Assembly: GCA_963664395.2 (NCBI GenBank)
Contig: OY761159.2
Span: 3,264,001 to 3,328,000, forward strand
Length of the DNA: 64,000 nucleotides
Source: Candidatus Binatia bacterium
GTDB lineage: Bacteria; Desulfobacterota; Binatia; Bin18
Direction: 5' to 3'
Part shown: piece by piece, positions 1 through 21,250 of the stretch
Position numbering within the stretch: the stretch's first letter is position 1
Layout of the letters: each line of letters opens with the position of its first letter
Program-made: the position numbers and the translations under genes
Notes under the pieces: model-generated
Seen by the model: the letters and a program-made list of their open reading frames with translations, nothing else
What the model was told of the DNA's origin: nothing
The model's database searches: none

Positions 1-606
1 CCCGACTGAACTCGATGTCGTCCACATAGGCCACGACTTCGTGCTCGCCTTCGCCCAACAGATTCCAGTTGAACAACAACCCAAAGCCGTTGTCCGTATC
101 CCCACAGAGTTCTTCACCCTCCTCCGTATACTCCGTGTCGGCTCGGTCTGTGCCATACGCGGCGAACTGCCGCCCGAGGTGCCCAATCGCAAGCTCCACC
201 GCGTCGGCCGCACACACCCAGCCCGAAATGACGCCGATGCCACTTTGAAAGGAGTCCGGGCCGGGATTCTCCAGATTGCCTGGCAGTACGGTCACCCGGA
301 GGGTATAGCGCCCGGTCTGGCGGCCATTGCCCGCCACGGCAATGACCACTGGCCCGGCTTCGACCCGCACGCTGAGCCGGAAGTTCTGCCCCGCCCCGCC
401 ACTGTCGGCGGTGGCCAGTTCCTCCCCGTTCTGCCACACCGTCCCCATAGTAGCGGTGGACCCGGTGGTTTCGACCGACAGAATGCCCGCGTAGGGCGCG
501 TCGAACTGAAAGTAATCCCGGTCGCGGGCTGGCGCGATCTCGCCCGAGGTGGACGAGGTCGGCGCGATGGATGTCGCCGCCCCTGCACTGTTGCCGTGCA
601 CGTCGC
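1..606 (-). CDS. Frameshifted C-terminal part of the ASST surface protein: PPC-like domain plus LENP module (runs off the window)
   Basis: Manual translation: RDVHGNSAGAATSIAP...DRDYFQF...LSVETTG...GTVWQNG...GRYTLRVTVLPGNLENPGPDSFQSGIGVISGWVC...CGDTDNGFGLLFNWNLLG. Collinear with the C-terminus of 4529..10108. Confidence 0.85.
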
Positions 607-3405
607 GGGACTGCCGCCGCCACCACCACCGCCCCCGCCCCCACCGCCGGTACCCGTCCCGCCGCCACCAGGTGGGGGCGGGACGGGGATACGGTGGGCC
701 GCGGGCACTTTCGATAGCCGGGTGTTGCCGGCGGTACAGATGCCGCCAGCCACACAGGACTCGCCGGTCACCAGGCGGAAGGTGAGTTGAGCATTTCCGG
801 CGGGACCCAGGGTGAAGAGGTAGGCGTGGGCCGCCTCGCCCGCTACGAGATGCGGCGCGACGCTCACGACCGTGCCACCGGTGACACTGACGGATGGGGT
901 GTCGGCAGCGAAGTCTACTACCGGCTGATTGAACGCCACGACTACCGTCGGCTGACTCGACGGACCGGTGTGGAAGCCAGAGTTGGACGCACTGGCCGAG
1001 ATCGTCGCCGTCAGCAGACCGAGCTCGTCCGCCAAGGCCGCTGACGGCACCGGGTAGGCCCGGGTGGGAAGTACGACATCGCTCTCGTCATAGGTCATCG
1101 TTATTGACAGCACTTCCTCGCCAGTCTCTGGGTTCACCTCGGTGATCGACTCGTCGGGAGGAAGCGGGGTATTCGGGTCATCATCGAAAGTCCCCCTCCC
1201 CCAACTGACCAGCCAGTTTCCGCTGTCCAGCAGCTCGACATGACCCTGAGACCGCGCATGCCTGTTAAAAGCCCTGTGGAGCGAATGGTGGCGTTGGAAG
1301 GTCGCTTCGCCTGCATCGACATCGAGCGCATACTCCACCACTCTGCTGAATTCGCCGCCGGTCCGCGTGCTGTCACTCGTTTCCGGATCAACGAGGCAGT
1401 GGCCGCCGTTGTCGAAGAGCAGGAGATTCCCATTGCCCGTCATCCGTGCCGCATGTTGTCCACAGAACTCTCCGTAGGGATCGTTCAGAATCGTCAAGGG
1501 CGGGGTGCCGCCCCCGGCAACCCAGTCCTCTTCGCTCCGGTTGCTCTTGCCCAACCGCCAGATCACATCCCCGCTCGTGCCATCAATTCTCAAAATCTGT
1601 GAGCAACCCCTGAACGAGGCGATAATGTCTCCATCGGCTACGTCGAGGGAGTTGATGTGAGCGTAATCCCAGGGGAAACGGTGCTGCGTACAGTCCTCTA
1701 TGGCCATGTGATCCCAAGAATTCCATAAGAAAACCTGGCTCCCTCCCGGCGTCACTTCCTGAATGACCGAATCTTCCACGCTCTCATCACTCGTGCAGGG
1801 GCCTGGCATTCCAGATCCAGATCCGTAGGGACAGGTCAAGTCTGTGAGGTCCCGATGATCGGCGGGCTCATAGCCCATGAGCACATAGTTCCCATCATTC
1901 TTGATGACGAAGTCGTGGTCGTCGGTATGCGTTAATGGTGTGACGACCTGGACCCTGTCTGCCTCCTCAAGCTGATCGTCCAACACTACGCTTTGGGTAT
2001 TTTGAAGTAGGTCAGCCCTCCCCGTGGCGTTACTGGGGATGGTCGTGCCGGTTCTTCGGGCATAGGAGTAGGGGTATTTACCATTTCTATGAAACTTGAA
2101 GGAGGTCCCCCCGCCTTCGCTCAGTCTCCGGCGGAACCGTGGCACTCCGTTGTTGTCAATAATCGCGAGGTACGCGTCCTCCCGTCTTGCGCTTATCGTG
2201 ATGAGGCCATCCGAAGCTCCCGCTGTTTTGGTAGCCGTGAGGCGCGGGAAGTCGTCAGCCAGACAATGGACGACATAGGTCGTGCTTGCACCGCTGCTGT
2301 TGCTGAGCACGATGTCGATGTCATTCTCGCCATCGAGTCCCGTCAGTTCGACCTCTCCATTCTGATTCGCGACCTGTCTGCCGTTGACCGCCACGCGCGT
2401 GCTTGTCTCCTGCGACGACACCCGCACCGTCAGGCTATCGTCGCATCCCACGGCGTAGTGGAACGTGTCGGCATTGAACGCCGGGTACATCTCCCGGTCG
2501 GAAGTCGTGGTGACGTGGAGTACACTGAGTTTGAGCGGCGGCGCATCGTCATCCGCAATGATGACAGTCTGTTGTGTGCCGACCGCAGTTCCGTCAAGAG
2601 TTGCGGCGATGACGATGGTCTCAGCGTTCTCGTCGTGAGTATCGTTCACCGCAGTGATGATGCCCGTGACCTCGTGCCCGCCCGCCGGAAGGGTGAGAGA
2701 GAAGGGCTTTGAAACCGGACGGCCATAAGCACCGGTGAACGTGTAGTCGCTCCCAACCGTGGCACTCCCGCCGAGGGTGATGTCGATCACCTGCGCGGAC
2801 TGGAAGGTGACGCCATTCGTAACGCTGATTGTGACGGTTGCCGTGCCTGTATCCGCCTCTGCGATGCTGGGAGAATCAACACTCAGACTGAACACAGCCG
2901 TGTCGTTATCTTCCACCGTCACCGTGGCCTCACCTGCGTTGGCGTCAACCGTATAAGCGGAGTCGTCCGTGATGGTTGCCGTCACTTCGCTGGAGTCCTC
3001 GACGACGGTATCGTCGTCCGTCGCGACCGACAGGGTCGTGGTGCTGTGATTTACCGCGAAGGTCACCGTCGTATCCGACGGGCTGGTCAGTATGGAGCCC
3101 GTCTCTTGCACGCTGACGGCGACGAGCAGCTCGGCCGCCGTCGTCCCGGTTCGTACCAGGGTGAAGGGGGCGTCCGTTCCCTCCACCAGGCTTGTCTGTG
3201 CCGAAATCGAGACTTTGGGTAATGACTGTGCCGCCGCTTTATCCGGCGCCCCGAGAATAGCGACGGGCAAAAAGCAGTACCACCACCAGTCGGGAATGAG
3301 AGACCGAAACCGCCCAGGCGCACGACAAGCATGTGATCGAAGCGGCTGACAGAATTGGGGGAATATGCTGTTAAGGGAAATTCGGTTCGGAGAGACCGTC
3401 ACCAT
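292..3405 (-). CDS. Secreted arylsulfotransferase (ASST)-domain surface protein with Calx-beta-like, cadherin-like and Ig-like domains; frameshifted at ~608
   Basis: ORF 292..3681. Likely start is ATG 3405, ahead of a signal-like segment ending AAA-QS. ASST motifs HTDDHDF, DYAHINSL, IASFR, GQHAAR, LLFDNG, SRVVEYALD, GNWLVSWG. A Pro/Gly linker follows, after which the real protein continues in another frame. Confidence 0.8.
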   Translation of the reverse strand: MVTVSPNRISLNSIFPQFCQPLRSHACRAPGRFRSLIPDWWWYCFLPVAILGAPDKAAAQSLPKVSISAQTSLVEGTDAPFTLVRTGTTAAELLVAVSVQETGSILTSPSDTTVTFAVNHSTTTLSVATDDDTVVEDSSEVTATITDDSAYTVDANAGEATVTVEDNDTAVFSLSVDSPSIAEADTGTATVTISVTNGVTFQSAQVIDITLGGSATVGSDYTFTGAYGRPVSKPFSLTLPAGGHEVTGIITAVNDTHDENAETIVIAATLDGTAVGTQQTVIIADDDAPPLKLSVLHVTTTSDREMYPAFNADTFHYAVGCDDSLTVRVSSQETSTRVAVNGRQVANQNGEVELTGLDGENDIDIVLSNSSGASTTYVVHCLADDFPRLTATKTAGASDGLITISARREDAYLAIIDNNGVPRFRRRLSEGGGTSFKFHRNGKYPYSYARRTGTTIPSNATGRADLLQNTQSVVLDDQLEEADRVQVVTPLTHTDDHDFVIKNDGNYVLMGYEPADHRDLTDLTCPYGSGSGMPGPCTSDESVEDSVIQEVTPGGSQVFLWNSWDHMAIEDCTQHRFPWDYAHINSLDVADGDIIASFRGCSQILRIDGTSGDVIWRLGKSNRSEEDWVAGGGTPPLTILNDPYGEFCGQHAARMTGNGNLLLFDNGGHCLVDPETSDSTRTGGEFSRVVEYALDVDAGEATFQRHHSLHRAFNRHARSQGHVELLDSGNWLVSWGRGTFDDDPNTPLPPDESITEVNPETGEEVLSITMTYDESDVVLPTRAYPVPSAALADELGLLTATISASASNSGFHTGPSSQPTVVVAFNQPVVDFAADTPSVSVTGGTVVSVAPHLVAGEAAHAYLFTLGPAGNAQLTFRLVTGESCVAGGICTAGNTRLSKVPAAHRIPVPPPPGGGGTGTGGGGGGGGGGGGSPATCTATVQGRRHPSRRPRPPRARSRQPATGITFSSTRPTRAFCRSKPPGPPLLWGRCGRTGRNWPPPTVAGRGRTSGSACGSKPGQWSLPWRAMAARPGAIPSG

Positions 3406-3629
3406 TAGCCGCAGGGCAGCCCAGCCATTGTGCAGCAAAAACAGCCCGCGGAGAAGCTTCCACAACCGACCTGCCCTTTCCCCAAAATGTATGCAGCAAG
3501 TATATGTTGAGGAGACGGCGTGGCGCATTAGGTGTACTCCAGAGGTTGGGGAGAGCGTCATACCTTGCGAGTGCTGTACCTCCTCAGGGGATGCTTCCCG
3601 TGCCGTCCTCGCTGATCGTCCTGCATCTG

Positions 3630-3713
3630 TCACCCAGAAGCGACGGTCTGTGCCGCCGCCGCCCCGGCCCACAAGACGCACAGGGCCACAGTCATCACTC
3701 TCAGTCGCTTCAT
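3630..3713 (-). pseudogene. Signal-peptide-only ORF MKRLRVMTVALCVLWAGAAAAQTVASG*
   Basis: GAGGAG RBS, ATG at 3713, typical n/h/c regions with AAA-Q cleavage site, stop 6 codons later. Absent from the ORF track. Confidence 0.6.
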
Positions 3714-3832: not shown

Positions 3833-3855
3833 AAAAATAACCCTGTCCGGGGACC

Positions 3856-4528: not shown

Positions 4529-7500
4529 ATGCGTCTGTTGCGCTCATTACTACCGCGAACCGCAAATATGCTCAGGACAGTTTGCTTGTCCCGACGAGTG
4601 TACTCGCTGGTTTTCGTCCTTGGGTGTCTCACTATGCTGAGTGTCCATGGTGGTCCGGTTTTTGCCGCCTACAACAATCCGGCCACCGATTGGATGCGGG
4701 ACGGCAAATACGGACTTCACGTCAAATATCTCAACTGGATTCGCAGAAACGAAACAACAATTGAGGAGTTCAATCAGTGGGTGAATGCGTTTGATGTCAA
4801 TGCCTTTGCAGAAGACGTAGAGCTGACTGGCGCAAGCTGGGTCATCTGGGGCTTGGGGCGGACGTGGTTCAATTCACCGAATGCACCGCTGGAAAGCACG
4901 GTCGGCGATTTCACCTCCGATCGTGACTTGCCGCTCGAAATCTACGACGCACTGCACGAACGCGGCATACGATTGATGCTGTATGCCGCCGGCGATAAAG
5001 CGAGAACTGGGGAGAATAGCGCAGGAAAAGTCGCCTTGGGATGGGACGGAATCAATGACAATTATACCCGCACTTTTGTTAATAATTGGGCGGATGCGCT
5101 GCAAGTCTGGTCGGATCGCTATGGAACAAAGGTGTCGGGGTGGTGGTTCGATCATAGCTACCCTGATTATGCTGTTTCGGATACCGCCTGTGGGACTTCC
5201 AATCCGGAATTGGCGATCTATAGAACTCACCTCCTTTCCGGCAACCCAGATGACGGCATAGTGGGTATTAACCATGGTAACAGGATGGGGGGCGAGCTCT
5301 GCCATAGCCCCGAAGATGACTATAGGGCTGGGCACATTAGGGAAGATTCCTTAGAAGTTGCATCTTCTCGATGGTGGAATGGACTGCAATGGCACTACAT
5401 GTTTCCGATTGGCACTAGCGGTTGGGGTTCCCCGTATGTCCGATGGGATACACAGGACCAGATCGATTACGTCATCGAAAACAACAGGCACGAAGGTGTG
5501 AACACCTTCAGCGTGTTTGTCTATACGATGCCGGGGGAGTCGGCTGAGGGTGTCGTAAAGGTGCCGGGGCACCTCAGCAATGCACAACTCCGGCAACTGG
5601 CAGCGCTCCGGGATGCTTCGCTAGGGTTTGTAGACAATACGTCGAGCGACATTTCCTTCAATGGTACCTGGGCGAAGCAAGACGACGGCATGGACTTCCG
5701 TGGATCGACGAGCTGGTCGGCGGTGGCGGACAACTATGCCGAGGTGGCTTTTACCGGAACCGGTGTGGAGGTGGTCGTCAGAAAGGGGCCTAACGGCGGC
5801 CTGGTCAACGTGGTGGTGGATGGCGCCGTGGTGGTGGATGATTTCGACACGTATTCGAGTACAACCGAATATAAGCAGACCATCTACGACAATCAGACTC
5901 TCAGTTCGGGGTCCCATACAATCCGCCTGGTGGCGACCGGCGAGAAAAACGCCAGCGCGACAGCAGCCGACGCCATGTTGGATTACTTTGCGGTCACCAA
6001 GGCGGATACGACGGCCCCGAGAGTATTGTCAATCACGAGCGACGCGACGCACCCGGCGAAAGACTCCTTCACGGTAACGATCGACTTCCTGGAGGATGTC
6101 ACGGGGCTCACGGCCGGAGAGATAGTGGTCACCAACGGCACAGGCGCGAACCTCACGGGCACGGGCGCGAGCTACACGCTCGACATTGAGCCGATTGCCA
6201 ACCTCGCAGGCGAGGTGACGGTGCGGGTTCCAGCCGATGCAGCGGAGGACGAAGGGAACAACGGCAACCTTGAGAGGAGCGAAACGTTCGCGGTGGACGC
6301 TCAGGCGCCGGCGTTCCAGAACGCGGCGGTGGACGGAGCCAGGCTGACGCTGGCTTACAATGAGGAGCTGGACCGGTTTTCGGTGCCGCCGACGAATGCC
6401 TTCACGGTGACGGGGAGCGCTCAGGCGCAGACGGTTTCCCAAGTCGTGGTCGGGGGCACGGTGGTAGAGCTGACCCTGAATCCGGGGGTCGAGCAGGGGG
6501 AAGCGGGGATCCGGGTAAACTATACGCAGGGGATGAATCCGATCCGGGATGTACCGGGCAATCAGGCAGAGGGACTGAGCCAGGTATCGGTGACCACCGA
6601 CAACCTGTCTCCGCTCCCACTCCTCCCGCTGTACACGGTCTCTTCGCCCGACGGCAGCCTGACCGCGACGGTCGCGGCCACCAGCGGTAATCTGAGCTAT
6701 ACGGTCAGCCGTGACGGGACCACGCTCATTGCCGATTCGCCGCTCTCGATTCGGGATGCCGCCGCGCACACAGTCACCGGGAATGCGACCACGAGTCACG
6801 ATAGTACCTGGGAGCCGACCTGGGGCCAGTTCAGCAGGATCCGAGATCATCACAATCGCCTGACGCTAAACCTGGATGTCGGCGGCCTATTGTTCGATCT
6901 GATCTTTCAGGTCTACGACGACGGGCTCGGCTTCCGTTTCGTGGCGGACGAACAAGCCTCGCTGTCGGGAAAGATCCTGAGTTACAAGGTGAGGTACAAC
7001 ATGGATGGAAGCTACTGGGCATACTGGCCCATGGGAGAAAGCTCGCCAGAAGGGCCACACCCCATGGATGCCCTGCCGAGTAATCCCCGCAGGTCGGTGG
7101 TGGTGGTCTATGCGGCGGGCAACGACGAGTATTTTGCATTGCTGGAGTCGGACCTGTTTTCCGCCGACGCATTCGAAGCAATTAAATTTTGGAGGGTGAC
7201 CGGAGAGGCGGCGTTGAAGACGAACCACAAATCGCAGACCGTGCCGGCGGGGGATTTTGTCTCGCCCTGGCGGGTCGTTCTGGTGGGGGATACGCCAGGG
7301 GATCTGCTGGAGAGCACCGTGGCGCTCAATCTGGCCGCACCGCTGGCGCTCGACGATGCCTCGTGGGTGAAGCCGGGTAAGGGCCTCTCCAACTGGCGGA
7401 CCCTGGGCTACCAGACCGACGACGGCCTCTTCACCTATCGTCTGAATACGGCAACCCTGAAGCGCTTGATCGACTTCGCAGCCGACAATGGTATTGAGTA

Positions 7501-10108
7501 CGTTGACGTTGACGACGATTGGTTCACGAGGATCAACAACGGCCAGCTTGTCAGCCAGGCATCTGATTTTGACATCGAGGAGGTCATCGCCCATGCTGAC
7601 ACCAAAGGCGTTGCCATCACCATCTATGTAGACCAGAGGCCGGCTGGCCGGATCACCAACACGACGGACAAGCAGCTCTATCAGCTCTTCAGCAATTTGG
7701 GCGGCTCGGCTATTAAGTACGGCTTCAGGAGCAACGACGCACCGTTCACCCGCGCCGCGCTCCGAGGCACCGCGGCAAAACAGATGCTGATCAATTTCCA
7801 CGACGATCCGACCCCCATGACTGGGGCGCGCCGGACAATGCCAAACGCCATCACCCGGCAGACAGGGTGGGGCCAACAGGACAACCGCACGGCCTTCGCA
7901 CCAACGGATTTCCTGGAAATGGCAATGATCAATGCCTTGCTGGGACCCTTCGATCAAGTCAACGGCATCTACGACCTCAACGAAATGCCGGATCGGGACA
8001 ATGGCTCCGACAATCTCATCAATTCCACCGTCGCCGGCGAAAACGCGCGGGTTCTGATCATGTTCAGCGGCATGATCAAGCTGCCGGATGTGCCGGAGGA
8101 ATACGCCAAGAAGGCCGACATGTTCGAATTCCTGCGGGAAATGCCGGTGACCTGGGACGAGACCCGCATCCTGCACAGCTCCCTGCCCCACTACATCACC
8201 ACGGCCCGACGCAGCGGCAAGGCGTGGTTTGTGTGCTCGGCCACGAACGAAAGCGTGAAAACCCTGAACAGCACCCTGGATTTCCTCGAGGCCGGCGTGA
8301 CCTACAATGTGACCTACTACGAAGACGATCATGATGGGACGCCGCCGACCCACTACATCGACAACCGCGAAACGTACCAAGTCCGTACCGGGATGGTGAC
8401 CAGCGCCGATACGGTGTCCGCCGTCATGGTCGCAGGAGGCGGCCACTGTATGTGGATTCGCACGCAGCCGGTGCCGCCACAGCCCGGCCACCCGGTGGAC
8501 GGGGTCCGGCCGGTGCTCCAGGGTGCGACGGTGGGTGGGGCCACACTGACGCTGACCTACAATGAGGCGCTCGACGAGGACTCGACGCCTGCGGCGAACG
8601 ATTTCACGGTGGATGTCGCGAGCGCCGAGAGGCTGCTAACCCAGGTTCTGGTGAGCGGCCGCACGGTCACGCTGACGCTGATATCGGAGGTAACGCCGGG
8701 CGAGACGGTCAAGGTGAGCTATACCGCGGGGACGCGCCCGATCCGGGACGCGGCGGGCAACGCGGCCGTAGATCTGACCGAATACACGGTGGGCACGCCG
8801 CCTCCCGTAGTCATCACGCCCCCACGCCCGCCCACCACGGGTGGTGGCGGTGGTGGCGGCGGTGGCGGCGGCGGTGGTGGTGGTGGTGGTGGCGGCGGCG
8901 GCGGTGGCGCCTGTACACAGGACGACGTACACGGTAACAGCCCTGCACAAGCCACTGACTTGGCCCTGTCTGTTGCGACCGCCGGTGCTGTCTGTCCAGC
9001 CGCGGACGTGGATTATTTTACCGTGACCGCCCCCGGCCAAGGACTCCTCTTTGTGGACACTCCCGGTGGAGGACAGACTCGCGGGACCATCTGGCAGAAC
9101 GACGCGGTCTTGGCGGCTGGCTCCACGGGGAGTGGTCAGCAGCCCGACCGGCTGGGCGCCCGCGTTGCGGCGGGGCCGGTCGTGGTGGCCGTGCAAGGCC
9201 AAGGCGGGGCAACCGGTGCCTACGCCCTGGTTGTCAGCTTCGTGCGGGGCTACCTGGAGAACCCTGGCCCGGATTCCTTCCAGGGTGGCGTGGGGGTACT
9301 GTCGGGTTGGGTGTGTGCCGCGAACCAAGTCGAGATCGCGATTGGGAACCTCCCGCCGCAAGTGGCGGCGTATGGGACCGAGCGGGTGGACACGGCCGGG
9401 ATGTGCGGGGATACGGACAACGGCTTTGGGCTGTTGTTCAACTGGAATCTGTTGGGGGATGGGGAGCATGAGGTGGTCGCCTTGGTCGATGGGGTGGAGT
9501 TAGGCCGGGCGACGGTGACCGTGACGACGTTGGGCGAAGAGTTTCTGCGGGGCGCCGCAGGGACTTGTGAGGCGGAGGACTTCCCGACGCTCGGCGAGAC
9601 GGTGACCCTCGTGTGGCAGCAGAATAGTCAGAACTTTGTCATGGCACGGGGGAGTGCCCCGGCCAAGGCTATCACGAGCAGACCGAGGGGGCTGACGGGG
9701 TATCTGGGGAATCCAGGCCACAATTCCTTTCAGAGCGGCATTGGCGTCCTCTCGGGCTGGGTGTGTGAGGCGAATCAGGTCGAGCTCGCAATTGGGGACC
9801 TCCCGCCGCAAGTGGCGGCGTATGGGACCGAGCGGCGGGACACGCGAGAGGTGTGTGGGGATACGGACAATGGCTTTGGGTTATTGTTCAACTGGAATCT
9901 ATTAGGGGACGGAGAACATGTCGTGGTCGCCTTTGTGGATGGGGTGGAACTGGGGCGAGCCACGGTGCAGGTGACAACCTTGGGGCAGGAATTCCTGCGG
10001 GGAGCTGAGGGCGAGTGTGTCGCGGACGACTTTCCCCGCCTGGGGCAGCAGGTGTGGCTGGCGTGGCAGCAGAATAGCCAGAACTTCGTGATTGTGGACG
10101 TGGAGTAG
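4529..10108 (+). CDS. Large secreted multidomain glycoside hydrolase: GH29-like barrel, CBM-like, Ig-like, SwmB, GH97, SwmB, poly-Gly, PPC-like, 2x LENP module
   Basis: 1859 aa. Signal-like N-terminus; WMRDGKYGLHV...GWWFD (GH29-like); SwmB-like AVDGARLTLAYNEELD twice; GH97 features YTVSSPDG, SPWRVVLVG, WVKPGK, PVTWDETRIL, ARRSG; Gly23 linker. Confidence 0.85.
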   Translation: MRLLRSLLPRTANMLRTVCLSRRVYSLVFVLGCLTMLSVHGGPVFAAYNNPATDWMRDGKYGLHVKYLNWIRRNETTIEEFNQWVNAFDVNAFAEDVELTGASWVIWGLGRTWFNSPNAPLESTVGDFTSDRDLPLEIYDALHERGIRLMLYAAGDKARTGENSAGKVALGWDGINDNYTRTFVNNWADALQVWSDRYGTKVSGWWFDHSYPDYAVSDTACGTSNPELAIYRTHLLSGNPDDGIVGINHGNRMGGELCHSPEDDYRAGHIREDSLEVASSRWWNGLQWHYMFPIGTSGWGSPYVRWDTQDQIDYVIENNRHEGVNTFSVFVYTMPGESAEGVVKVPGHLSNAQLRQLAALRDASLGFVDNTSSDISFNGTWAKQDDGMDFRGSTSWSAVADNYAEVAFTGTGVEVVVRKGPNGGLVNVVVDGAVVVDDFDTYSSTTEYKQTIYDNQTLSSGSHTIRLVATGEKNASATAADAMLDYFAVTKADTTAPRVLSITSDATHPAKDSFTVTIDFLEDVTGLTAGEIVVTNGTGANLTGTGASYTLDIEPIANLAGEVTVRVPADAAEDEGNNGNLERSETFAVDAQAPAFQNAAVDGARLTLAYNEELDRFSVPPTNAFTVTGSAQAQTVSQVVVGGTVVELTLNPGVEQGEAGIRVNYTQGMNPIRDVPGNQAEGLSQVSVTTDNLSPLPLLPLYTVSSPDGSLTATVAATSGNLSYTVSRDGTTLIADSPLSIRDAAAHTVTGNATTSHDSTWEPTWGQFSRIRDHHNRLTLNLDVGGLLFDLIFQVYDDGLGFRFVADEQASLSGKILSYKVRYNMDGSYWAYWPMGESSPEGPHPMDALPSNPRRSVVVVYAAGNDEYFALLESDLFSADAFEAIKFWRVTGEAALKTNHKSQTVPAGDFVSPWRVVLVGDTPGDLLESTVALNLAAPLALDDASWVKPGKGLSNWRTLGYQTDDGLFTYRLNTATLKRLIDFAADNGIEYVDVDDDWFTRINNGQLVSQASDFDIEEVIAHADTKGVAITIYVDQRPAGRITNTTDKQLYQLFSNLGGSAIKYGFRSNDAPFTRAALRGTAAKQMLINFHDDPTPMTGARRTMPNAITRQTGWGQQDNRTAFAPTDFLEMAMINALLGPFDQVNGIYDLNEMPDRDNGSDNLINSTVAGENARVLIMFSGMIKLPDVPEEYAKKADMFEFLREMPVTWDETRILHSSLPHYITTARRSGKAWFVCSATNESVKTLNSTLDFLEAGVTYNVTYYEDDHDGTPPTHYIDNRETYQVRTGMVTSADTVSAVMVAGGGHCMWIRTQPVPPQPGHPVDGVRPVLQGATVGGATLTLTYNEALDEDSTPAANDFTVDVASAERLLTQVLVSGRTVTLTLISEVTPGETVKVSYTAGTRPIRDAAGNAAVDLTEYTVGTPPPVVITPPRPPTTGGGGGGGGGGGGGGGGGGGGGGGACTQDDVHGNSPAQATDLALSVATAGAVCPAADVDYFTVTAPGQGLLFVDTPGGGQTRGTIWQNDAVLAAGSTGSGQQPDRLGARVAAGPVVVAVQGQGGATGAYALVVSFVRGYLENPGPDSFQGGVGVLSGWVCAANQVEIAIGNLPPQVAAYGTERVDTAGMCGDTDNGFGLLFNWNLLGDGEHEVVALVDGVELGRATVTVTTLGEEFLRGAAGTCEAEDFPTLGETVTLVWQQNSQNFVMARGSAPAKAITSRPRGLTGYLGNPGHNSFQSGIGVLSGWVCEANQVELAIGDLPPQVAAYGTERRDTREVCGDTDNGFGLLFNWNLLGDGEHVVVAFVDGVELGRATVQVTTLGQEFLRGAEGECVADDFPRLGQQVWLAWQQNSQNFVIVDVE
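8840..8908 (+). repeat. (GGY)23 poly-glycine linker
   Basis: 69 nt of GGT/GGC codons between the cargo domains and the PPC/LENP tail. Confidence 0.95.
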
Positions 10109-12985: not shown

Positions 12986-13273
12986 GGCGGGGTGGGGCGT
13001 TTGGGTCTCTATTCTAGGTGCTATCTCTCCATAAATAATCACACCGCTATACTCCGAGTTGACATCCGCTCTCGTATTGGGCTGGTTCTTGTCCGTCAAC
13101 ACTGCATGGGACTCGCTACGTCGGGTCACCTGCTCAATAGAACAGCCAGATACCCGGCGTGGGGTCGCTCCCCGTGCCCCGGTAAATAGGCGGGGACTTC
13201 ACACTTCCATGTGGTGTTGACAATGGCCCGGCATACTGGCTGGGTACACTGTATGTCATACGGGGAGATGGAT

Positions 13274-15324
13274 ATGACTTACCGGACAAAGGATACAGAC
13301 ACTATCTGGAAAGGATACAGCGCGGTGGGCGTGGGCGGCATTATCCTGTTGCTCTTCCTCAGTTGTCGTCTGGCCTCCGCCCAGGCAACGCTGGAAAATC
13401 CCCAGCTGAACTCTCGTTTCAGAGCGGTATTAGCGTAATCTCGGGCTGGGCGTGTGACGCGATTGCGGTCGTTATTGCCATCGATGACGATGAGAACTTC
13501 GACGAAGATGCCGACGGATTTGCCGATGCCGATGTCGAGCTGCTATTCCCAGTCTATGGCACAAGCCGAGGGGATACGATGGGCGTGTGCGGTGACACCG
13601 ACAACGGCTTTGGAGTGTTATACAACTGGAATAATCTCGGAGATGGGGTGTATACCGTGTGGGCGGGTTATGTAGGGCTAGATTCCGATGGAAACTCCAC
13701 GACGACCCTGTCTGCCCCGGTTGCGGTCACTGTGACGACACTCGGCTATGAATTTCTCAGGGGCGTGGAGAGGGAAGCAAGCTTTACGGGCTTTCCGTCT
13801 GCCGGAGACGGAATCAATCTTCAGTGGCAACAGAGTCTCCAGAATTTCGTCATCCGAGGGACTGCTAGTGCGAGCGGTGGTAATGCGGGCGCTCCGCCGA
13901 AGATTTTAGAAAATCCTCAGCCGGGGGCGTTTGTGAGTGGAATCGGTACCATCTCGGGCTGGGTGTGTGATGCCAACACGATAGAGATCGAGTTTGATAA
14001 TGACGCGGCCAACAGGTGGCAAGCGGGTTATGGGACGGCGCGAGTGGATACGTATGGTGTGTGCGGTGACGCCAACAACGGCTTTGGGCTGTTGTACAAT
14101 TGGAATAATCTCGGAGATGGCATTCACACTGTTCGTGCTCTCGCTGACGGCGTAGAGTTTGCCAGTGCAACGGTCGCGGTGACGACATTCGGAGAAGAAT
14201 TTCTCAGGGGTGCCAGCGGCACCTTTACGGTATCCGACTTTCCTCAACCTGGGGTCAGTGTTGATCTCCTGTGGCAGCAGAGTCAGCAGAATTTTACCAT
14301 CTCCAGAGTCTCCGGAGATGGGTCTGAGGGAGTACGCGCTGGTTTAGCGGCACTGAAGGCTGGCAATATGCGTGAAGCCAACACCGCTTTTCGTCGGGCA
14401 ACGATAAACGACCCGGCCGACACGACCGCCGGCTTCTATCATGCTTTGACCCGAATTCTGACAAAAGTGATTGACACGCCCCAACTCAGAGAACTTGCTC
14501 GTCGTAGCGATATATCCCTCAGTGGCGATGCCAGTGACGTTTGCCCGTTGGACCTCTCGCTTCCGAAAGATTTTCCGCACAGCGCCCCGCGAACCGAAGA
14601 GATCCTCGACGCCTTGCGAGATGTCCTCGTACCAGAGATTGATGCGGCTCTCACGACCCTGAACGGACTTCCCACCTCCATGGAAGTTCCTTTTGTTCTG
14701 GGGAATCTACCGCCCTGCTTGTCGGGAATCGCTGATGATTTTGTCGTCGAGATTGACCGGAGTGATGTGCAGACGCTCATCGCCATCTTACGGGCAATCC
14801 GGGGCGCGTCAGCAGTTCTTGCCGCGTATGACGTAGATGTGAGTTTGCAAGTGCTAACAACATCGACCCTGCAAGAAGTCCTGGCCGCAGAACCGACGAT
14901 TCTTTCCTTAGTGTCGCGCACACGTCTTTCGTCGGCACGGACGTTCTTTGACCAAGCCTTAACACAGGCGAGCCAGGCTATTCAGTCGGCTTTGGCGGAG
15001 ACGGACAGTCAAGCGGACGACCTCCTTGTTATTACTCCAGGGGATATTTCAGACGCCCAACGTCTCAGGCGGACTCTGGATTTCGTACGCCAGTCCTTGT
15101 ATGGGACCGTCGTACTACCGACAGATATTGGTCTCAACGATCCTGAACGACTGAACTTGAGTCTATTCTTTTCAGGTCGTCTCGGAGCGTTACGGTCGTT
15201 GGTGCCGGCTCCTGACGGGAGCTTCCCTGATCCGACGTTCGGCGGAATGGCTCCGGACTTAACGCAGCAAGATATCGAGGAATACCTCCCGGAGAAGGTC
15301 CTGACGTGGTTGAGGCGTGAATGA
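13274..15324 (+). CDS. Secreted protein with two N-terminal LENP modules and a helical C-terminal domain; frameshift at ~13413
   Basis: GGGGAG RBS and ATG 13274, signal peptide ending ASA-QA, then LENPQLNS. The frame changes at AACTCTCGTTTCAG to FQSGISVISGWAC (ORF 13363..15324). Confidence 0.8.
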
Positions 15325-17495: not shown

Positions 17496-17713
17496 TGTGC
17501 GCCCCCTTTCTTATCGAGGGCATGAATCAGCAAGGGTTCGCTTTCCGGCACGCTCATACCTTCAACAAGTTGGCGGGACTGCCGCATGTCTTCTACGACG
17601 CGCTGCCAGCGTAAGAGGTTTTCATACGGGCGTACAAGCTGATTGAGTTCCGCGTCAGTAAGCGCAAGATTCCATTCGGCGAGTCTTGCCGCAATGAGGG
17701 CTTTTGTGTCCAT
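17492..17713 (-). CDS. Small amidase-associated protein (GatC/AtzG-like position and size)
   Basis: 73 aa, GGAG RBS, 4-nt overlap with the amidase; helical N-terminus and C-terminal PESEP. Confidence 0.6.
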   Translation of the reverse strand: MDTKALIAARLAEWNLALTDAELNQLVRPYENLLRWQRVVEDMRQSRQLVEGMSVPESEPLLIHALDKKGGAQ

Positions 17714-17722
17714 GCTACTCTC

Positions 17723-18007
17723 CTATTTCAGTTCTGTTTCCACAAAGACGAACTCATAGTCATTGGCATTAATCACATCGTGTTCGACCCCGACATTCCG
17801 AAAATAAGGGACGCCTTGGGTCAACTCGGCTTCGTGGTCGCCGTCGGGTGCTTTGAGTAATAACTGCCCCGTTGTCATTGGCACGACAACATAGTCGTAA
17901 GCATGCCGATGGTAGCCGGTGGCCGCACCGGGGGCGAAACGCCATTCCGTTACGCGTACGCGTTCGTTGTCAATGCGGATTGTTGATTGGGCTTTCTCCT
18001 GCGACAT
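17723..18007 (-). CDS. Cupin domain protein (BauB-like)
   Basis: DNERVRVTEWRFAPGAATGYHRH.YDYVVVP...GVEHDVIN; GGAGG RBS before ATG 18007. Confidence 0.88.
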   Translation of the reverse strand: MSQEKAQSTIRIDNERVRVTEWRFAPGAATGYHRHAYDYVVVPMTTGQLLLKAPDGDHEAELTQGVPYFRNVGVEHDVINANDYEFVFVETELK

Positions 18008-18096
18008 AAGACCCTCCTGCCCTGTTCCTGTGGAAAGAGCGTAGCGCAAGAATTTTGAGATGCAACTCTTTCTGCAAGTGGTTGCACGCCGGGAAT

Positions 18097-18804
18097 TTAC
18101 TCCTCAGCCACCCATTCACGTTGCATACGGTCCGGGGAGAGTCCCAGACGTGGCTTTCGCTCGGGGATAATCTGAAAACATGTGGAGTGAGCGGCTCCGA
18201 GCCCACAGAGCGTTTCATATCCGGCTGCCTGCTGCCAACGCCGGCAATCCGTGCTGCTGCTCCAGGAGCTGAGCAGGACGTAATGCACAGGAGCGCGCTG
18301 TGGAACAATGCCGGCGAGCTGGGCAAAAACATAGGGTGTATGGATGTGCTCGCCCTTCAGCGCCTCATAGGGAATGACACCGAAGCGCGAAATGTCTGAG
18401 AGCGCAACTGTTACCTGACTGTGCTCTTCATCTGAAAGCGCTGTATCCCGCAGCAGCATGGTTTCATTCAAGATGGTGCCGGTCGCCGCCTCGTGGTCCG
18501 CCAGTATACGTCCTTTGCGTAGGTAATAGGCGGTCCACCATTTTTCTCGGGCTTCATCCTGAATCTTCACATGTTCACGGTCGCGCTGCCAGTCTTCCAT
18601 CGCTTCAAGCGTGTCAAATTTGGCAAAGAAGAGCCACCAGGGAGTTCCCGCAATCGGCCCGCCATAGGTTTCTCGAAAGCCACCCTGTGCCCTGGCATGG
18701 GGCATGAACTGTTCATGGCGTTTACCGTAGGCTTCCAATAGTTCCAGGCGCGGACGAAAGCCGCCTTCGGCAATATGGAGGGTGGGTGGTACATCTTCAG
18801 GCAT
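18097..18804 (-). CDS. Antibiotic biosynthesis monooxygenase (ABM)-like dimeric alpha/beta barrel protein
   Basis: FDTLEAMEDWQRDREH..IQ..AREKWW..Y motif, with a second degenerate ABM-like half. Confidence 0.65.
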   Translation of the reverse strand: MPEDVPPTLHIAEGGFRPRLELLEAYGKRHEQFMPHARAQGGFRETYGGPIAGTPWWLFFAKFDTLEAMEDWQRDREHVKIQDEAREKWWTAYYLRKGRILADHEAATGTILNETMLLRDTALSDEEHSQVTVALSDISRFGVIPYEALKGEHIHTPYVFAQLAGIVPQRAPVHYVLLSSWSSSTDCRRWQQAAGYETLCGLGAAHSTCFQIIPERKPRLGLSPDRMQREWVAEE

Positions 18805-19153
18805 GCTGCTCTCCCTTAATTCTGTCCTGGGCTGGTTCCCATGCTATTTCGACCTTGTGAATTTTGTAGTCCCAGCAATCTCCCATAACGCCGTCTTCCT
18901 TGCTCACAAAGATATAGCACCCCCCTCTTCCGTTGACATATCCGCTGGCTTTGTACACAGTCCTTTCTGTCAACTTCCAGTAGCGAGCCCGCTGAGTCGG
19001 GTCGCCTGCTGAATACAAGAACCGTCACACGGGAGGGAGTCATGATCCTCCTGTGGTGAATAGGCAGGACCTCACTCCATTCGTTGCTGTGAAGTTGACA
19101 CGGCCCGGCATTCCCCGGGCGGAAACGGTTGATATATTGAGGAGGAGCGTACC

Positions 19154-21250
19154 ATGTTCTTGATTAGCGTAATCGCGGCGTGTGTGTTGACGGCCAGTCA
19201 TGCCCTGGCGGTTGAATGGGAAGTCTGGTTGTCCGACCAATCGAATAGTGCCGATATCAGCACCGGGAATCCCACCGGAACTTTTGGCAGCCGGATTCTC
19301 ATCTACGAAGGCCGCGACATCATGATGGCGCAGCCCGGAACGTATGCTGAAGACCATGAGGAATTTGCGCCGGCTGTCATCGAAGCGGACGATGTCTTTC
19401 CACACGCGTTCTCAGAACTCGGCGCGAATGTCGAGCGTCTGCACGGCATGTTCCCGCATCCGTCACATCGATATATGAATGCGAACTTTTTTGGGCCGGG
19501 CGTTGGGCTGGTGGGCATTATCGATGCGGAGGGACAATGTACGCTGTCTGGCAACGGGTTCAAGCAATGTGGACCGATTCAAGGGGGACCGCGTGAGGCG
19601 GAGAAGTTGGCCAAAGCTCTCTTTCGGACCACTGGACCGGAAGGCTCCGCGCCCTCGAATCATATGTCTTATTTCAGTCTGGACGGCACTAAGCTGCTTG
19701 TGGCCAATCTTGGCGCAAAGCTGTTGGAACGCATTGATTATGATAAGGAGACCGGCACCTTCATTTTCAACAAAGCGGCCACGCTCGATTTGGTGGGGGG
19801 CCGAGACCTAACCGCTATGGAAGCGATGGCCGATTCCACCTTGCCCGCCGGGCAGGTGAGCGGGGAGTATACCAACTTCCAAACGATGGACACGCCAAGC
19901 GGCACACTCAAGGAAGGGCCGGGACGGCCCAATAACGTCCTGGTTTGCGCCCGACCCAGCAGCAACAATCAGCATGTGTATCTCACGCTCGGCGGTGGCG
20001 GACTGTTTGTGGTTGATATGACGACCGAACCGATGTCCATCGTTGCCGAATATACCAATGACGTCATCAACGGCGCCGGGTGTGGCGGCGATGAAGGGGG
20101 TGGCTTTATATATATCAACGCGGGTGTGTCCGCGAGTGCCGCCGGCGCGGATGACTCCGTGTTCATCATGTATCGGCTGCCGCTCGACTATCCTGATGGC
20201 GCCAGCCCTCTCACAACGCCTAATATGCCGCGGCCCGTGAAATTTTTGGAAGAGAAAACGCTGGGGATCACCTCTGAAGAGGATTTAGCCAATCGCCGTG
20301 ATGCCCACGGCATGATCATCTCACCCACCACCGGCCGATATCTCTATCAGGCTGATCGAATCCAAAACGTCATAGAAGTCTTCGATCTGGGCAAGATTAT
20401 CAACGATCCCGACGCAACGCTGGAAGAGCAGGCAGCAGCACATGCGGGAACCATCGACCTCACCGGGTCAGAATGGTGTGTCGGCGAAGGAGCGCCCTTT
20501 GTCAATCAGGATGATGAAGACTATGAATTCAACGACGATCCTGCCCCGGACTCCATTGATGTCTCTCCCGATGGCAGCAGGCTCATCGTCTCCTTCCGAG
20601 GTCCACATCCCGTCTCCGTGAAGCACGCGGCCTTGGGCAGTTGCGGTGGGTTCGGGGTGGTGACGCTCAACGGCGATGGATCAAATGGAACACTAAGCCA
20701 CGTGTTCCGCACCTTCCTATCTGACGAGACCGGCACCAAAAACCTGAGTGACATTCATATGACAGTCATACGGATCAAAGGCCCGAATGTCGTGCCCCCA
20801 TTCCATCACAGCGAACCGCCAGTGTCTACTGAGCCGCAGCCGGGAAGGTTGGAGAATCCGGGACCGATGTCATTTCAGAGCGGCATTGGGTTCATTCACG
20901 GCTGGGTCTGTGCAGCCGACGAAGTGACGATTGAGATCAACGGGCGGGCGCAACCTGCGGGCTATGGGATGGCACGGTTGGATACCAAACCCGTGTGTGG
21001 CGACACGTATAACGGCTTTGGGTTGTTGTTTAACTGGAATCTGCTGGGGGATGGGGAGCATATGGTGGTGGCCAAGGCGGATGGGGTAGAGATCGGCAGA
21101 TCGACAGTACAGGTGACAACGCTGGGGCAGGAGTTCCTGCCAGACGTAGTAGGCGCGTGTGAGCTGACAGACTTTCCGAGGGTAGGTGAAACGGTCACAC
21201 TGGAATGGTTAGAGGCCGTGCAGAATTTCGCGATTACCGAGAGGCGGTAA
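19154..21250 (+). CDS. Secreted beta-propeller-like protein with a C-terminal LENP module
   Basis: GAGGAGG RBS, signal peptide ending ALA-VE, blade-like motifs (FSLDGTKLLVAN, VSPDGSRLIVS), Pro-rich linker, LENPGPMSFQSG...QNFAI. Confidence 0.85.
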   Translation: MFLISVIAACVLTASHALAVEWEVWLSDQSNSADISTGNPTGTFGSRILIYEGRDIMMAQPGTYAEDHEEFAPAVIEADDVFPHAFSELGANVERLHGMFPHPSHRYMNANFFGPGVGLVGIIDAEGQCTLSGNGFKQCGPIQGGPREAEKLAKALFRTTGPEGSAPSNHMSYFSLDGTKLLVANLGAKLLERIDYDKETGTFIFNKAATLDLVGGRDLTAMEAMADSTLPAGQVSGEYTNFQTMDTPSGTLKEGPGRPNNVLVCARPSSNNQHVYLTLGGGGLFVVDMTTEPMSIVAEYTNDVINGAGCGGDEGGGFIYINAGVSASAAGADDSVFIMYRLPLDYPDGASPLTTPNMPRPVKFLEEKTLGITSEEDLANRRDAHGMIISPTTGRYLYQADRIQNVIEVFDLGKIINDPDATLEEQAAAHAGTIDLTGSEWCVGEGAPFVNQDDEDYEFNDDPAPDSIDVSPDGSRLIVSFRGPHPVSVKHAALGSCGGFGVVTLNGDGSNGTLSHVFRTFLSDETGTKNLSDIHMTVIRIKGPNVVPPFHHSEPPVSTEPQPGRLENPGPMSFQSGIGFIHGWVCAADEVTIEINGRAQPAGYGMARLDTKPVCGDTYNGFGLLFNWNLLGDGEHMVVAKADGVEIGRSTVQVTTLGQEFLPDVVGACELTDFPRVGETVTLEWLEAVQNFAITERR

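Follow-up and report, generated by a model that had tools for sequence, protein, structure and literature searches.

The E-set domain of sulfite oxidase, SorA and SorT mediates two-fold homodimerisation. Type I dockerins are small calcium-binding helical pairs that bind a separate cohesin, SLH domains are helical, and the T9SS type-A domain (TIGR04183/PF18962) is an Ig-like sandwich tag of ~75 residues that terminates many secreted proteins. Sorting tags typically occur on a scale of ~1.5% of genes. To our knowledge, few cases are known in which diderm bacteria retain proteins non-covalently outside the outer membrane. Here we describe LENP, a module that recurs at the ends of exported proteins in Binatia, uncultured and widespread bacteria that are common in sponges. 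The window, meaning the whole stretch of DNA analysed, comprises 64 kb from a Candidatus Binatia genome; one sequencing run that holds this stretch is labelled as a sponge metagenome.

LENP modules and their carriers in the window

Six LENP copies on four carriers had been predicted in positions 1–21250 of the window, and translation, alignment and HMM search found all six copies at their predicted sites. An HMM built from the copies scores 190–240 bits per copy (iE 1e-57 to 1e-72), so the similarity is not due to chance. The copies are 51–80% identical to the first one in the six-copy alignment, with 28 invariant columns that include W23, C25, C55 and the CGD, NGFG and NWN motifs. The two cysteines, originally described as invariant, are so in the six window copies; in an alignment of 122 diverse copies, which has 13 invariant columns, the first cysteine never varies and conservation of the second is at least 90%.

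The first carrier lies on the minus strand, and its module (2–286, −) is truncated by the window edge. The copy predicted here is present, but it opens a tandem pair at the C-terminus, and the second module of this pair lies beyond the window: the HMM matches residues 269–408 and 425–558 of the frame C1 3263405–3265087. The cargo frame (292–3681, −) encodes Calx-beta-like, cadherin-like and arylsulfotransferase (ASST) domains (Pfam Arylsulfotrans, 3.4e-21). According to the translations it terminates in a Pro/Gly run, out of frame with the frame at 2–601 (−), which encodes a PPC-like domain and the module. The break between the two falls in or beside a poly-Gly tract, and contigs from other runs break or vary in length across the Gly-coding repeat of the ASST gene (613–649). 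The PPC-like domain (287–601, −) has ~105 residues, precedes the modules, carries the motif D.HGN..A.AT...D.DYF and matches Pfam PPC (PF04151) over profile positions 1–69 of 70 with E 0.0022.

The second carrier is a protein of 1,859 residues (4529–10108, +) that consists of a signal peptide, an unassigned N-terminal domain, Big_12, the N, catalytic and C domains of GH97, SWM repeats, a Pro/Gly linker, a PPC-like domain and two LENP modules. The linker tract (8832–8916, +) reads as a run of ~24 Gly in translation and was flagged as a repeat in the contig comparison. The PPC-like domain (8917–9241, +) shows the motif pattern of the other carriers and has no Pfam match at E ≤ 1. The modules occupy 9242–9640 (+; 237.9 bits) and 9692–10105 (+; 240.3 bits), the second stopping one codon ahead of the stop codon. 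Pfam confirmed the ASST and GH97 cargo of the original prediction, but not a GH29-like domain: residues 1–400 of the GH97 carrier have no match at E ≤ 0.01.

The GH97 and ASST proteins both hold the weakly PPC-like domain of ~110 residues between the Gly linker and the modules, and a domain of this kind precedes module 1 in ~30 of 44 C-terminal carriers, as judged by eye. When eight copies were scanned with PF04151, two gave sub-threshold matches to the whole profile (19.3 bits for the ASST carrier and 14.7 bits, against a gathering threshold of 25.9 bits) and six gave none. Genuine Pfam PPC matches exist elsewhere in other carriers.

The third carrier has an N-terminal tandem. Module 1 (13378–13860, +; 201.4 bits) holds two inserts, an acidic one of 20 residues and another of 9, and module 2 (13894–14300, +; 224.3 bits) is directly followed by a cargo of ~340 residues (14301–15324, +), originally called a helical domain, that matches no family in Pfam or NCBIfam. 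Every carrier had been predicted to begin with a signal-like sequence, but a signal peptide is lacking from the frame of the ORF that starts at 13363. The start, the signal peptide and the residues ATLENPQ are encoded at 13190–13411 (+), out of frame with the remaining gene: the signal peptide ...LLLFLSCRLASA|QATLENPQ is read in the frame 13190–13438, and the frame shifts at ~13411. Two letters are absent at 13411 in contigs of runs X4, X5 and X19, and therefore the two frames of the third carrier join; run X1 agrees with the window. X19 is an RNA run whose contigs are 90–97% like 13356–14316, a resemblance that does not in itself establish transcription of the window gene in this Binatia bacterium.

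The fourth carrier comprises a signal peptide, a propeller-like cargo of ~555 residues and a short Pro-rich linker (19154–20836, +), followed by a single C-terminal module (20837–21247, +; 229.8 bits). The cargo, originally called a beta-propeller, has no Pfam match itself, and some of its homologues match Lactonase/PD40 weakly. Neighbouring genes in the window encode a LuxR-type regulator, Uma2, an amidase and three ORFs without a family, and no conserved receptor or machinery gene adjoins the carriers within the window.

Genome census and taxonomic spread

The module is not confined to the four carriers. Counting copies per genome, as had been suggested, we obtained 137 HMM matches in the 5.04-Mb host genome, 115 of them full length, in 83 reading frames corresponding to ~63–83 genes. 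A C-terminal pair is present in 40 frames, an N-terminal pair in 8 and a single N-terminal module in 7, and one protein has four modules (C1 3781032–3783038). After adjacent frames are merged, two modules per locus is the commonest arrangement (37 of 63 loci), and the gap between the modules is 10–16 residues in most tandem carriers. The modules either close the protein at its extreme C-terminus or follow the signal peptide directly. In the latter position, seen in 15 frames, they begin 2–9 residues past the predicted cleavage site. A distinct subfamily of single-copy N-terminal modules occurs on enzymes (beta-lactamase fold, FGE-sulfatase and SNase).

Of 64 frames with 340 aa or more, 44 show an N-terminal signal-like sequence, typically AxA|Q, according to a home-made heuristic judged by eye; many of the 20 frames without one are fragments behind frame breaks. 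The cargo families found by Pfam are all of extracellular type: subtilases, M4, M12 and M14 peptidases, GH97, ASST, nuclease, lipase and adhesin-like proteins with cadherin, FN3 or LRR domains. The signal scan and the Pfam assignments thus bear out the view of LENP carriers as exported proteins with interchangeable cargo. Other known envelope anchors, such as SLH, LysM, OmpA and PG_binding, are absent from the 59 carrier frames scanned with Pfam.

The original description of the module as unnamed holds: no Pfam or NCBIfam model names it in the window proteins or in 23 isolated modules. The LENP motif strings were found in no paper, and a description of the module was not found in print outside subscription journals and supplements. 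In the available portions of the two main Binatia genome papers (PMC8262859, PMC9999580), neither secreted or Ig-like proteins nor cadherin or adhesion proteins come up. A profile search of the PDB returned only OspA (E 0.33), which we take as chance.

An exhaustive profile search recovered 3,480 cluster representatives at E ≤ 1e-3, 1,561 of them at E ≤ 1e-30. Two matched stretches are seen in almost every one of the 150 best representatives, and proteins with three to four modules also occur. The predicted lineage specificity is upheld by the origin of the representatives, nearly all of which are Candidatus Binatia from two to three families of the class, and by the labels of 77 related loci fetched with the six-row alignment of window copies, 63 of which are assigned to Binatia/Binatota. 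Within the class Binatia, LENP is present in 40 of 201 sampled genomes, concentrated in two families.

Predicted fold and pairing of the modules

Structure predictions, which had been proposed as checks for single and tandem modules and for multimers, returned Ig-like sandwiches in a rigid unit for the tandem and a homodimer for the single module. The LENP module is predicted to be an Ig-like/E-set beta-sandwich of ~95 residues, distantly Big_7-like, with a beta-strand tail of ~40 residues, giving a length of ~135 residues. The tandem model is all-beta save for one short helix, and each module probably contains one disulfide. The modelled fold is not a new one but an ordinary Ig-like/E-set sandwich. 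Against residues 1–97 of the tandem model, VIA-align found 17 chains at Z ≥ 8, the best being 6tn6_A (Z 11.3, rmsd 1.9, 85 aligned residues). It was followed by the dimerisation domains of sulfite oxidases/dehydrogenases (Z 9.5–9.7, 14–17% identity), the CbhA Fn3-like chain 3pe9_A (Z 9.1) and 1ulv_A (Z 8.9). Only the top match is clearly above the common background of Z 7–8, and the T9SS-related chains 8qb1_A (Z 7.6) and 6za2_B (Z 7.2) are among the generic fold matches. In Foldseek, the single-module model, which is mediocre, matched CBM48 domains best (E 1.7e-3 to 2e-2, TM ~0.4). The tandem model matched only generic multi-Ig chains (TM ≤ 0.23), with no solved two-domain arrangement like that of the pair.

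At the sequence level, Big_7 (PF17957) is weakly detected in 4 of 23 single modules, with a best E of 0.016 and a threshold of 24.1 bits, and gives no match at E ≤ 0.01 on five window proteins. On the three-copy protein L154 the summed score is 34.8 bits (E 2.7e-8), and no individual stretch passes.

The tandem pair is modelled as a single rigid unit (pLDDT 93.1, pTM 0.85). Residues 96–138, which have pLDDT below 55 in the single-module model, are ordered in the tandem. The single module at 20837–21247 is predicted to form a two-fold homodimer with a score of 0.66, compared with 0.01 for the best of three controls. This homodimer mark was reached by 20 of 30 chains solved as self-pairs and by 1 of 23 solved single; the counts are rough, since our own alignment was used. 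Contacts agree between the homodimer runs to at least 96%, partner pLDDT is at least 88 and the interface has 143–151 contacts. The predicted interface is made of the tail and conserved motifs, with symmetric contacts 122:122, 131:131 and 19:19, and takes in 18 of 42 invariant or nearly invariant positions. As most conserved residues lie in this predicted pairing interface, conservation alone does not require an outside ligand.

Pairing is thus predicted by two predictors, and from their confidence values we infer that the tandem interface would equal that of the homodimer. The symmetric homodimer and the rigid tandem unit lend in-silico support to the oligomerisation element of the original prediction. 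The labels of first and second position on a tree of 115 modules require 10 changes, compared with 24–31 in the printed shuffles. This indicates that the pairs propagate as units.

Possible roles of the module pair

Among the best 120 homologues of the GSDH cargo, five carry LENP and four carry SLH. The comparison for GSDH/Spondin cargo is noisy, with 115 of 120 homologues without LENP and many different tails. The cargo of the 19154 carrier has 603 homologues, the best 120 of which are 65–98% identical to it: 82 of these consist of the cargo alone, six have LENP and six have a T9SS-type tail. As 82 of the 120 carry no tag, LENP is dispensable for this enzyme. The T9SS type-A sorting domain of other lineages stands exactly at the LENP position on the same cargo, and TIGR04183 is above cut-off in all three T9SS-tailed homologues that were rescanned. 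The T9SS and SLH tags on homologous cargo give indirect support to the originally proposed analogy with sorting and anchor tags. The analogy stops short of a T9SS-CTD-like secretion signal confined to the C-terminus, which the 15 frames with N-terminal modules disfavour.

We tentatively favour a role of LENP as a cargo-independent module of localisation or retention that works in pairs and probably gives its carriers a common address or anchor tag. The working unit would be two modules locked about a two-fold axis through the tail, three strands after the sandwich, and most of the conserved motifs (LENP, SFQSG, YGT, NGFG, VTTLG, DFP, W and QNF). Pairing would be intramolecular in tandem carriers, which are the majority, and single-copy carriers would homodimerise. 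The pair sits on a flexible Gly/Pro linker, often behind the PPC-like domain, at either terminus of exported proteins. With fold and pairing predicted in this way, we infer binding and anchoring: after export, the pair would tether its carriers, by non-covalent and bivalent attachment, to an extracellular structure that they share. This structure might be the cell's own envelope or exopolymer, or a host matrix, following the logic of SLH/CWB2 repeats.

It is possible, though unlikely, that the paired module is more specifically the address tag, readable at either end, of an undescribed surface-display or secretion pathway particular to Binatia. If so, ~70 proteins per genome, among them proteases, glycosidases, sulfotransferases and eukaryote-like adhesins, would be routed to the cell surface or host matrix, and LENP would correspond to the T9SS C-terminal domain or to SLH as found in other phyla on the same cargo. 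We likewise regard as doubtful that LENP is a sorting signal, with the pair recognised by a Binatia export or attachment machinery, either a T2SS variant or an undescribed one, that would bring ~70 proteins across or onto the outer membrane; the tag may then be cleaved together with the PPC-like domain. Such recognition would agree with the T9SS domain at the module position on the same cargo, with the ~1.5% of genes that carry LENP and with the PPC-like domain before the pair in ~30 of 44 C-terminal carriers. The host genome has three secretins, and in the same-genus genomes G007 and G086, which are without LENP, the best match to GspD is weaker than anywhere else in the genus (~1e-85 vs 1e-143 to 1e-156). 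However, GspD is found in 200 of 201 class genomes and is therefore uninformative and does not track LENP, and the G007/G086 pattern probably reflects one evolutionary event, with G196 and G158 as counter-examples. Known sorting domains need neither pairing nor self-association, modules also occur N-terminally in 15 frames, and no machinery gene adjoins the window carriers. Exosortase was not found in the host genome, and the 95.9%-complete genome has no match to SprA and PorU (TIGR04189, NF033707), for which control genomes were silent or below cut-off, or to Por_Secre_tail, for which the control was silent; given the silent controls, these absences weigh little.

Pairing might alternatively be the whole function, dimerising single-copy enzymes and, where tandem modules or multi-copy proteins pair between chains, building extracellular homotypic multi-enzyme or adhesin networks in the manner of a cellulosome. 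The large predicted homodimer interface, the likeness of the fold to the sulfite oxidase dimerisation domain, the four-module protein of the genome, the proteins with three to four modules among the representatives, and the single-copy N-terminal subfamily on enzymes are consistent with such assembly. Yet the modules of most carriers, 10–16 residues apart, are predicted to pair off inside a single chain, so tandem carriers would undergo no net oligomerisation. Carriers have one module or an even number, unlike many-copy cellulosome scaffolds, and the terminal location on a long flexible linker is left unexplained, which makes this reading rather improbable. We give still less credence to LENP as a CBM-like beta-sandwich that brings enzymes to a polysaccharide. 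The weak CBM48 matches in Foldseek and the many glycoside hydrolase accessory domains among the VIA-align matches point that way, as does a conserved polar/aromatic cluster (R.DT, CGD..N, NWN, H) mostly outside the predicted dimer interface. But peptidase, nuclease, lipase and cadherin/LRR/FN3 cargo share no common polysaccharide substrate, no CBM family model matches the window proteins or the 23 modules, and the fold matches are generic Ig-like ones. Ig-like domains are common fillers of bacterial surface proteins, and the generic fold would suit an inert structural spacer or stabilising domain. This is very improbable in view of the strictly terminal, paired organisation, the 13 columns invariant over 122 diverse copies, the retention on ~70 unrelated proteins per genome across dozens of genomes and the interchange with T9SS and SLH tags on homologous cargo.

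Whichever role applies, ~1.5% of the genes in this genome begin or end with one unnamed domain pair. Its carriers (proteases, glycosidases, sulfotransferases and cadherin/FN3/LRR proteins) are those likeliest to meet the environment or host. Naming the LENP family would annotate thousands of proteins together, and its ligand or receptor, once found, would show by what means Binatia hold on to their exoproteome. A compact module that pairs with itself and serves many cargos at either terminus might also be of use as a dimerisation or display tag.

Among known systems, Big_7 and related E-set accessory domains, such as the Ig-like module of the Thermotoga petrophila mannanase (6tn6_A), share the core of LENP and the pattern G.v.vsGW...R.D...GF...G.H. 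Unlike Big_7, LENP has the tail of ~40 residues, two conserved cysteines, the LENP start, putatively obligatory pairing and a location strictly at the termini; each module taken singly stays below the Big_7 threshold, and Big_7 has no known function to transfer. The E-set domain of sulfite oxidase, SorA and SorT is likewise an Ig-like sandwich with a structural match to LENP, but it belongs to a cytoplasmic or periplasmic molybdoenzyme, is not a portable terminal tag, lacks the beta tail and has no family-level sequence match. Dockerins and cohesins of cellulosomes resemble LENP in placing a duplicated terminal module on many enzymes and in relying on protein–protein contact. The predicted partner of LENP, unlike that of dockerin, is a second copy of itself, and a scaffold with several receptors was not found; the predicted LENP fold is Ig-like, and dockerin has no match in the Pfam scans of window proteins, modules and carrier frames. 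The T9SS type-A domain shares with LENP the Ig-like sandwich and the tagging of many secreted proteins, but LENP is longer, is paired and is also N-terminal. TIGR04183/PF18962 match homologous cargo proteins from other lineages and have no match on the five window proteins, nor on the 23 isolated modules at E ≤ 10. SLH (PF00395) has no sequence or fold relationship with LENP, which is Ig-like, comes in two copies rather than three and belongs to a diderm host with T2SS-type secretins; no SLH HMM match was found on the 59 carrier frames, the window proteins or the isolated modules. Other lineages nevertheless have SLH where LENP pairs stand on homologous cargo of the GSDH type. Like LENP, SLH consists of short repeats that fold into one pseudo-symmetric unit at either terminus of dozens of unrelated exported cargos, an outline shared by the CWB2 repeats of Clostridioides Cwp proteins.

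The LENP domain family in its genome and lineage

Translations and an alignment placed the six LENP modules of the window where the original prediction had located them: at 274 to 1 on the minus strand and at 9254, 9704, 13391, 13906 and 20849 on the plus strand. They are 51-80% identical to the first copy, share 28 invariant columns and score 190-240 bits each with an HMM built from all six. According to the HMM, the copy at 274 to 1 opens a pair; its partner falls outside the window. The original prediction had also called for copies to be counted by genome and by taxon. In the 14-contig, 5.04 Mb genome to which the window belongs (C1:3264001-3328000), the HMM matches 83 stop-to-stop frames at 137 places, and 115 of the matches are full length. 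The six window copies are a minor fraction of the genome's modules. Joining neighbouring same-strand frames leaves 63 loci; since joining also fuses some genuinely adjacent carriers, the number of carrier genes is between 63 and 83.

A C-terminal pair is found in 40 of the 83 module-bearing frames and an N-terminal pair in 8. Single copies are C-terminal in 20 frames, several of which are fragments, and N-terminal in 7, and one frame has four copies. Carriers are clustered around the window, with six module-bearing genes in 33 kb (C1 3252477-3285247), and comparable clusters lie at 1076040-1086864, 2797391-2816289 and 4591315-4612542. In one 603-residue carrier (C1 443204-445012), a Cache sensor domain interrupts the second LENP module (HMM positions 117 / 107-135), and another Cache stretch separates its two modules. 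Apart from its carriers, the window holds a type III restriction-modification-like cluster at 30853-37631 (+), in which an N6_N4 DNA methylase, a PIN-domain protein and a ResIII helicase/nuclease occur together with one ORF that matches no family.

As judged by profile searches, the LENP module, which the original prediction could not assign, is a member of no known named family: Pfam and NCBIfam are silent on it in the five window proteins at E<=0.01. In a Pfam scan at E<=10, weak Big_7 matches (best E 0.016) appear in 4 of 23 isolated modules along with scattered noise; on one three-copy protein Big_7 sums to 34.8 bits, with no single stretch passing the threshold. A PDB sequence search with the module profile returned nothing. 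No description of the module was found in the portion of the Binatia and Binatota literature covered, including PMC8262859 and PMC9999580, and its motif strings were absent from the searched literature; in both cases subscription journals and supplements fell outside the scope.

A profile of 23 LENP copies was run against 1.84 billion cluster representatives and matched 3,480 of them at E<=1e-3, 2,473 at E<=1e-10 and 1,561 at E<=1e-30. Almost all of the best 150 representatives have two matched stretches, near one or the other end. A search of contigs from one genome per species confirmed 256 stretches, and 77 loci were kept. Candidatus Binatia or Binatota is the label of 63 of these loci; the remaining 14 are labelled Thermodesulfobacteriota or delta-proteobacterial, or belong to single bins otherwise labelled. 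Of the 201 genomes sampled from the class, 40 encode the module: 21 of 24 in family f1, 1 of 1 in f2, 16 of 20 in f8 and 1 of 19 in f11, with none in the 16 other sampled families. The sample takes in two unpublished genomes (G087 and G183), neither of which affects these claims. The window's genome has the highest first-look candidate count of the 201, with 165. LENP is a large, unnamed, lineage-restricted domain family.

Cargo, export and reading frames of the carriers

A Pfam scan of 59 carrier frames no shorter than 340 aa found peptidases (S8 with P-domain, M4 with FTP, M12B and M14), ASST, GSDH with Spondin_N, GDSL lipase, a beta-lactamase-fold hydrolase, FGE-sulfatase, SNase and Cache, as well as many repeat domains (cadherin, FN3, Calx-beta, GLUG, LRR, CARDB, He_PIG and SWM). 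Together with the GH97 and ASST proteins of the window, all cargo families are of extracellular types. The original prediction proposed a lineage-specific anchoring, oligomerisation or secretion tag, and counted frequent cytoplasmic carriers without signal peptides as evidence against it; none is evident among 64 carrier frames. A home-made hydrophobicity heuristic flagged 58 of these frames. Reading its output by eye, we recognised a genuine N-terminal signal-like sequence, typically ...AxA/Q (the slash marks cleavage), in 44; another 14 are flagged only internally or at non-signal stretches, and 6 carry no flag. Most of these 20 have their start inside a linker or domain and resemble fragments downstream of a frame break. 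The distance from the predicted cleavage site to an N-terminal module is 2-9 residues. In this genome, a subfamily of divergent, single-copy modules (SGWKC..., ending ...TQHLE) directly follows the signal peptide of enzymes, namely a beta-lactamase-fold hydrolase, two FGE-sulfatase proteins and an SNase nuclease; its members (L146, L147, L152, L153, L155 and the protein of C1 87429-88562) form nearly one clade. The carriers are marked by terminal placement of the modules, by pairs as the rule and by diverse exported cargo.

The GH97 (4529-10108, +) and ASST (292-3681, -) proteins share a domain of ~110 residues (D.HGN..AQAT...D.DYF) that separates the Gly linker from the modules. It is only weakly PPC-like: two of eight copies match PF04151, at 19.3 and 14.7 bits, under the cut-off of 25.9. 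By eye, such a domain precedes module 1 in ~30 of 44 C-terminal carriers. The poly-Gly linkers reach ~24 Gly in the window, with runs of over 30 in other parts of the genome; the tracts at 613-649 and 8832-8916 vary in length between sequencing runs, and short-read contigs break there.

Some carriers appear interrupted by frame breaks. In the translations, the cargo of the ASST carrier occupies one frame and its PPC-like domain and module another; the apparent break falls within or next to the Gly-coding run, a tract (613-649) across which contigs of other runs vary in length. In the third carrier (13190-15324, +), the start and signal peptide (...LLLFLSCRLASA/QATLENPQ) are encoded in the frame 13190-13438, which is not the reading frame of the remaining gene. 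Two letters at 13411 (+) are absent from the contigs of runs X4 (depth 40.1/40.1) and X5 (21.2/21.2) and of the RNA-library run X19 (4.78/4.78), and run X1 agrees with the window (omission in 0 of 6.63). Deleting them unites the signal-peptide frame with that of the first module. The gene is therefore intact in relatives, and the 2-letter insertion that parts signal peptide from first module in this strain appears real. At least seven carrier genes of the genome are broken across two frames within a LENP module, among them C1 973159-974590, 2026519-2027426, 4608894-4612542, 1285688-1286842, 2747111-2750864, 2800814-2804548 and 3356152-3357542. These represent either numerous recent pseudogenes or assembly indel errors.

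Predicted fold and pairing of the modules

Structure prediction of single, tandem and multimeric modules, as proposed originally, yielded a rigid tandem and a symmetric homodimer. The lone-module model (23 sequences) is confident only at residues ~15-95, with pLDDT below 55 over the last 40 residues. The tandem-pair model (51 sequences) is confident along its entire length (pLDDT 93.1); its pTM of 0.85 implies that the mutual arrangement of the two modules is fixed. The predicted architecture is an Ig-like core plus a tail. Residues 1-97 are predicted to form an ordinary Ig-like/E-set sandwich, matching 6tn6_A (Z 11.3, rmsd 1.9 over 85), sulfite oxidase/dehydrogenase dimerisation domains (Z 9.5-9.7), the CbhA Fn3-like module (Z 9.1) and glucodextranase (Z 8.9); the method itself warns that Z 7-8 is common background. 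Foldseek matched the tandem model to generic multi-Ig chains alone.

Two copies of the single-copy carrier's module (20837-21247) were modelled with a 122-row alignment. The homodimer scored 0.66 (runs 0.66, 0.62 and 0.67) against 0.01 for the best of three controls; the mark set for this test is reached by 20 of 30 proteins solved as same-chain pairs and 1 of 23 solved as single chains, a rough calibration, as a custom alignment was used. Contact agreement between the runs is at least 96% and partner pLDDT at least 88. The predicted interface is symmetric (143-151 contacts, including 122:122, 131:131 and 19:19) and consists of the C-terminal tail (92-136) and the N-terminal LENP/SFQSG strand (6-21), together with residues 39-47 and 58-64. 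Such an interface would explain why the tail becomes ordered in the pair when it is disordered in a module modelled alone. Of the 42 positions that are invariant or nearly so, the interface takes in 18, and it would account for a good part of the originally described motif. Two-fold pairing is a prediction that the model supports.

In a tree built from the genome's 115 full modules, with few columns and many unresolved forks, the position-1/position-2 labels require 10 changes versus 24-31 in the printed shuffles. The C1 label requires 13 versus a shuffled mean of 29.6, with none of 500 shuffles as low, and the nine single N-terminal copies group almost entirely together (2 changes). This suggests that pairs tend to be inherited and moved as units.

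Proposed localisation role of the modules and alternative functions

The cargo of the single-copy carrier (~555 residues) is highly conserved and has 603 homologues. Among the best 120 (65-98% identity), 82 consist of cargo alone, 31 have N-terminal additions, 6 have one LENP module and 7 a different C-terminal addition. Precomputed Pfam annotation assigns a T9SS-type tail (PF18962 or PF13860) to 6 of these 120, and all three T9SS-tailed homologues rescanned exceed the TIGR04183 cut-off. The additions that recur at the C-terminus of this cargo are therefore of two kinds, the LENP module and an established sorting domain. In a noisier test, the best 120 homologues of the GSDH/Spondin cargo have LENP on 5, SLH on 4 and many other tails on the rest. 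About 45 homologues of this cargo (among P0294-P0347) end in another conserved unnamed domain (...GENPFLAYGVVNDGGAPG.RSGDGAYLPA..), which may be a further lineage-specific tail. The ~555-residue cargo itself (19154-20836, +) is propeller-like and without a family name, and its best 120 homologues come from MAGs labelled as several phyla. Fusions of some homologues to amicyanin-like cupredoxin (P0262, P0264) or Cu/Zn superoxide dismutase (P0251) hint at a periplasmic copper or redox enzyme.

We tentatively favour a reading, slightly short of an even chance, in which the LENP pair is a cargo-independent localisation or retention module: the modules would act as a pair, localising or retaining exported carriers regardless of cargo. 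This reading is based on the replacement of the module by SLH or T9SS tags on homologous cargo, on the anchoring role that modules folding as one unit at either terminus have proved to have elsewhere, and on the carriers having no other anchor; Pfam found no SLH, LysM, OmpA or PG-binding domains in the 59 frames and the window GH97 and ASST proteins.

LENP could instead be a true sorting signal, which we consider unlikely. The genome has three secretins and no exosortase was found in it; Por_Secre_tail, SprA and PorU have no match, with weak controls, and no shared machinery is apparent among the genes between the window carriers. GspD is ruled out as the explanation of the module's patchy distribution, being present in 200 of 201 class genomes. 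The only two module-less genomes among 16 of the same genus, G007 and G086, also have its weakest best GspD match (~1e-85 versus 1e-143 to 1e-156 in the rest). This coincidence is probably one evolutionary event, with G196 and G158 as counter-examples, and the pattern is a lead only. A pure oligomerisation module, which the predicted homodimer would suit, is distinctly unlikely, and a substrate-binding CBM less likely again; Foldseek finds CBM48 matches for the single-module model, all of them weak. An inert spacer is highly improbable.

The proposed retention by a paired module would have parallels in known systems. In SLH and CWB2, repeated modules form one unit at either terminus of dozens of exported proteins and serve as non-covalent anchors. 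LENP modules are likewise repeated, are predicted to fold as one unit, and occur at either terminus of unrelated exported proteins.
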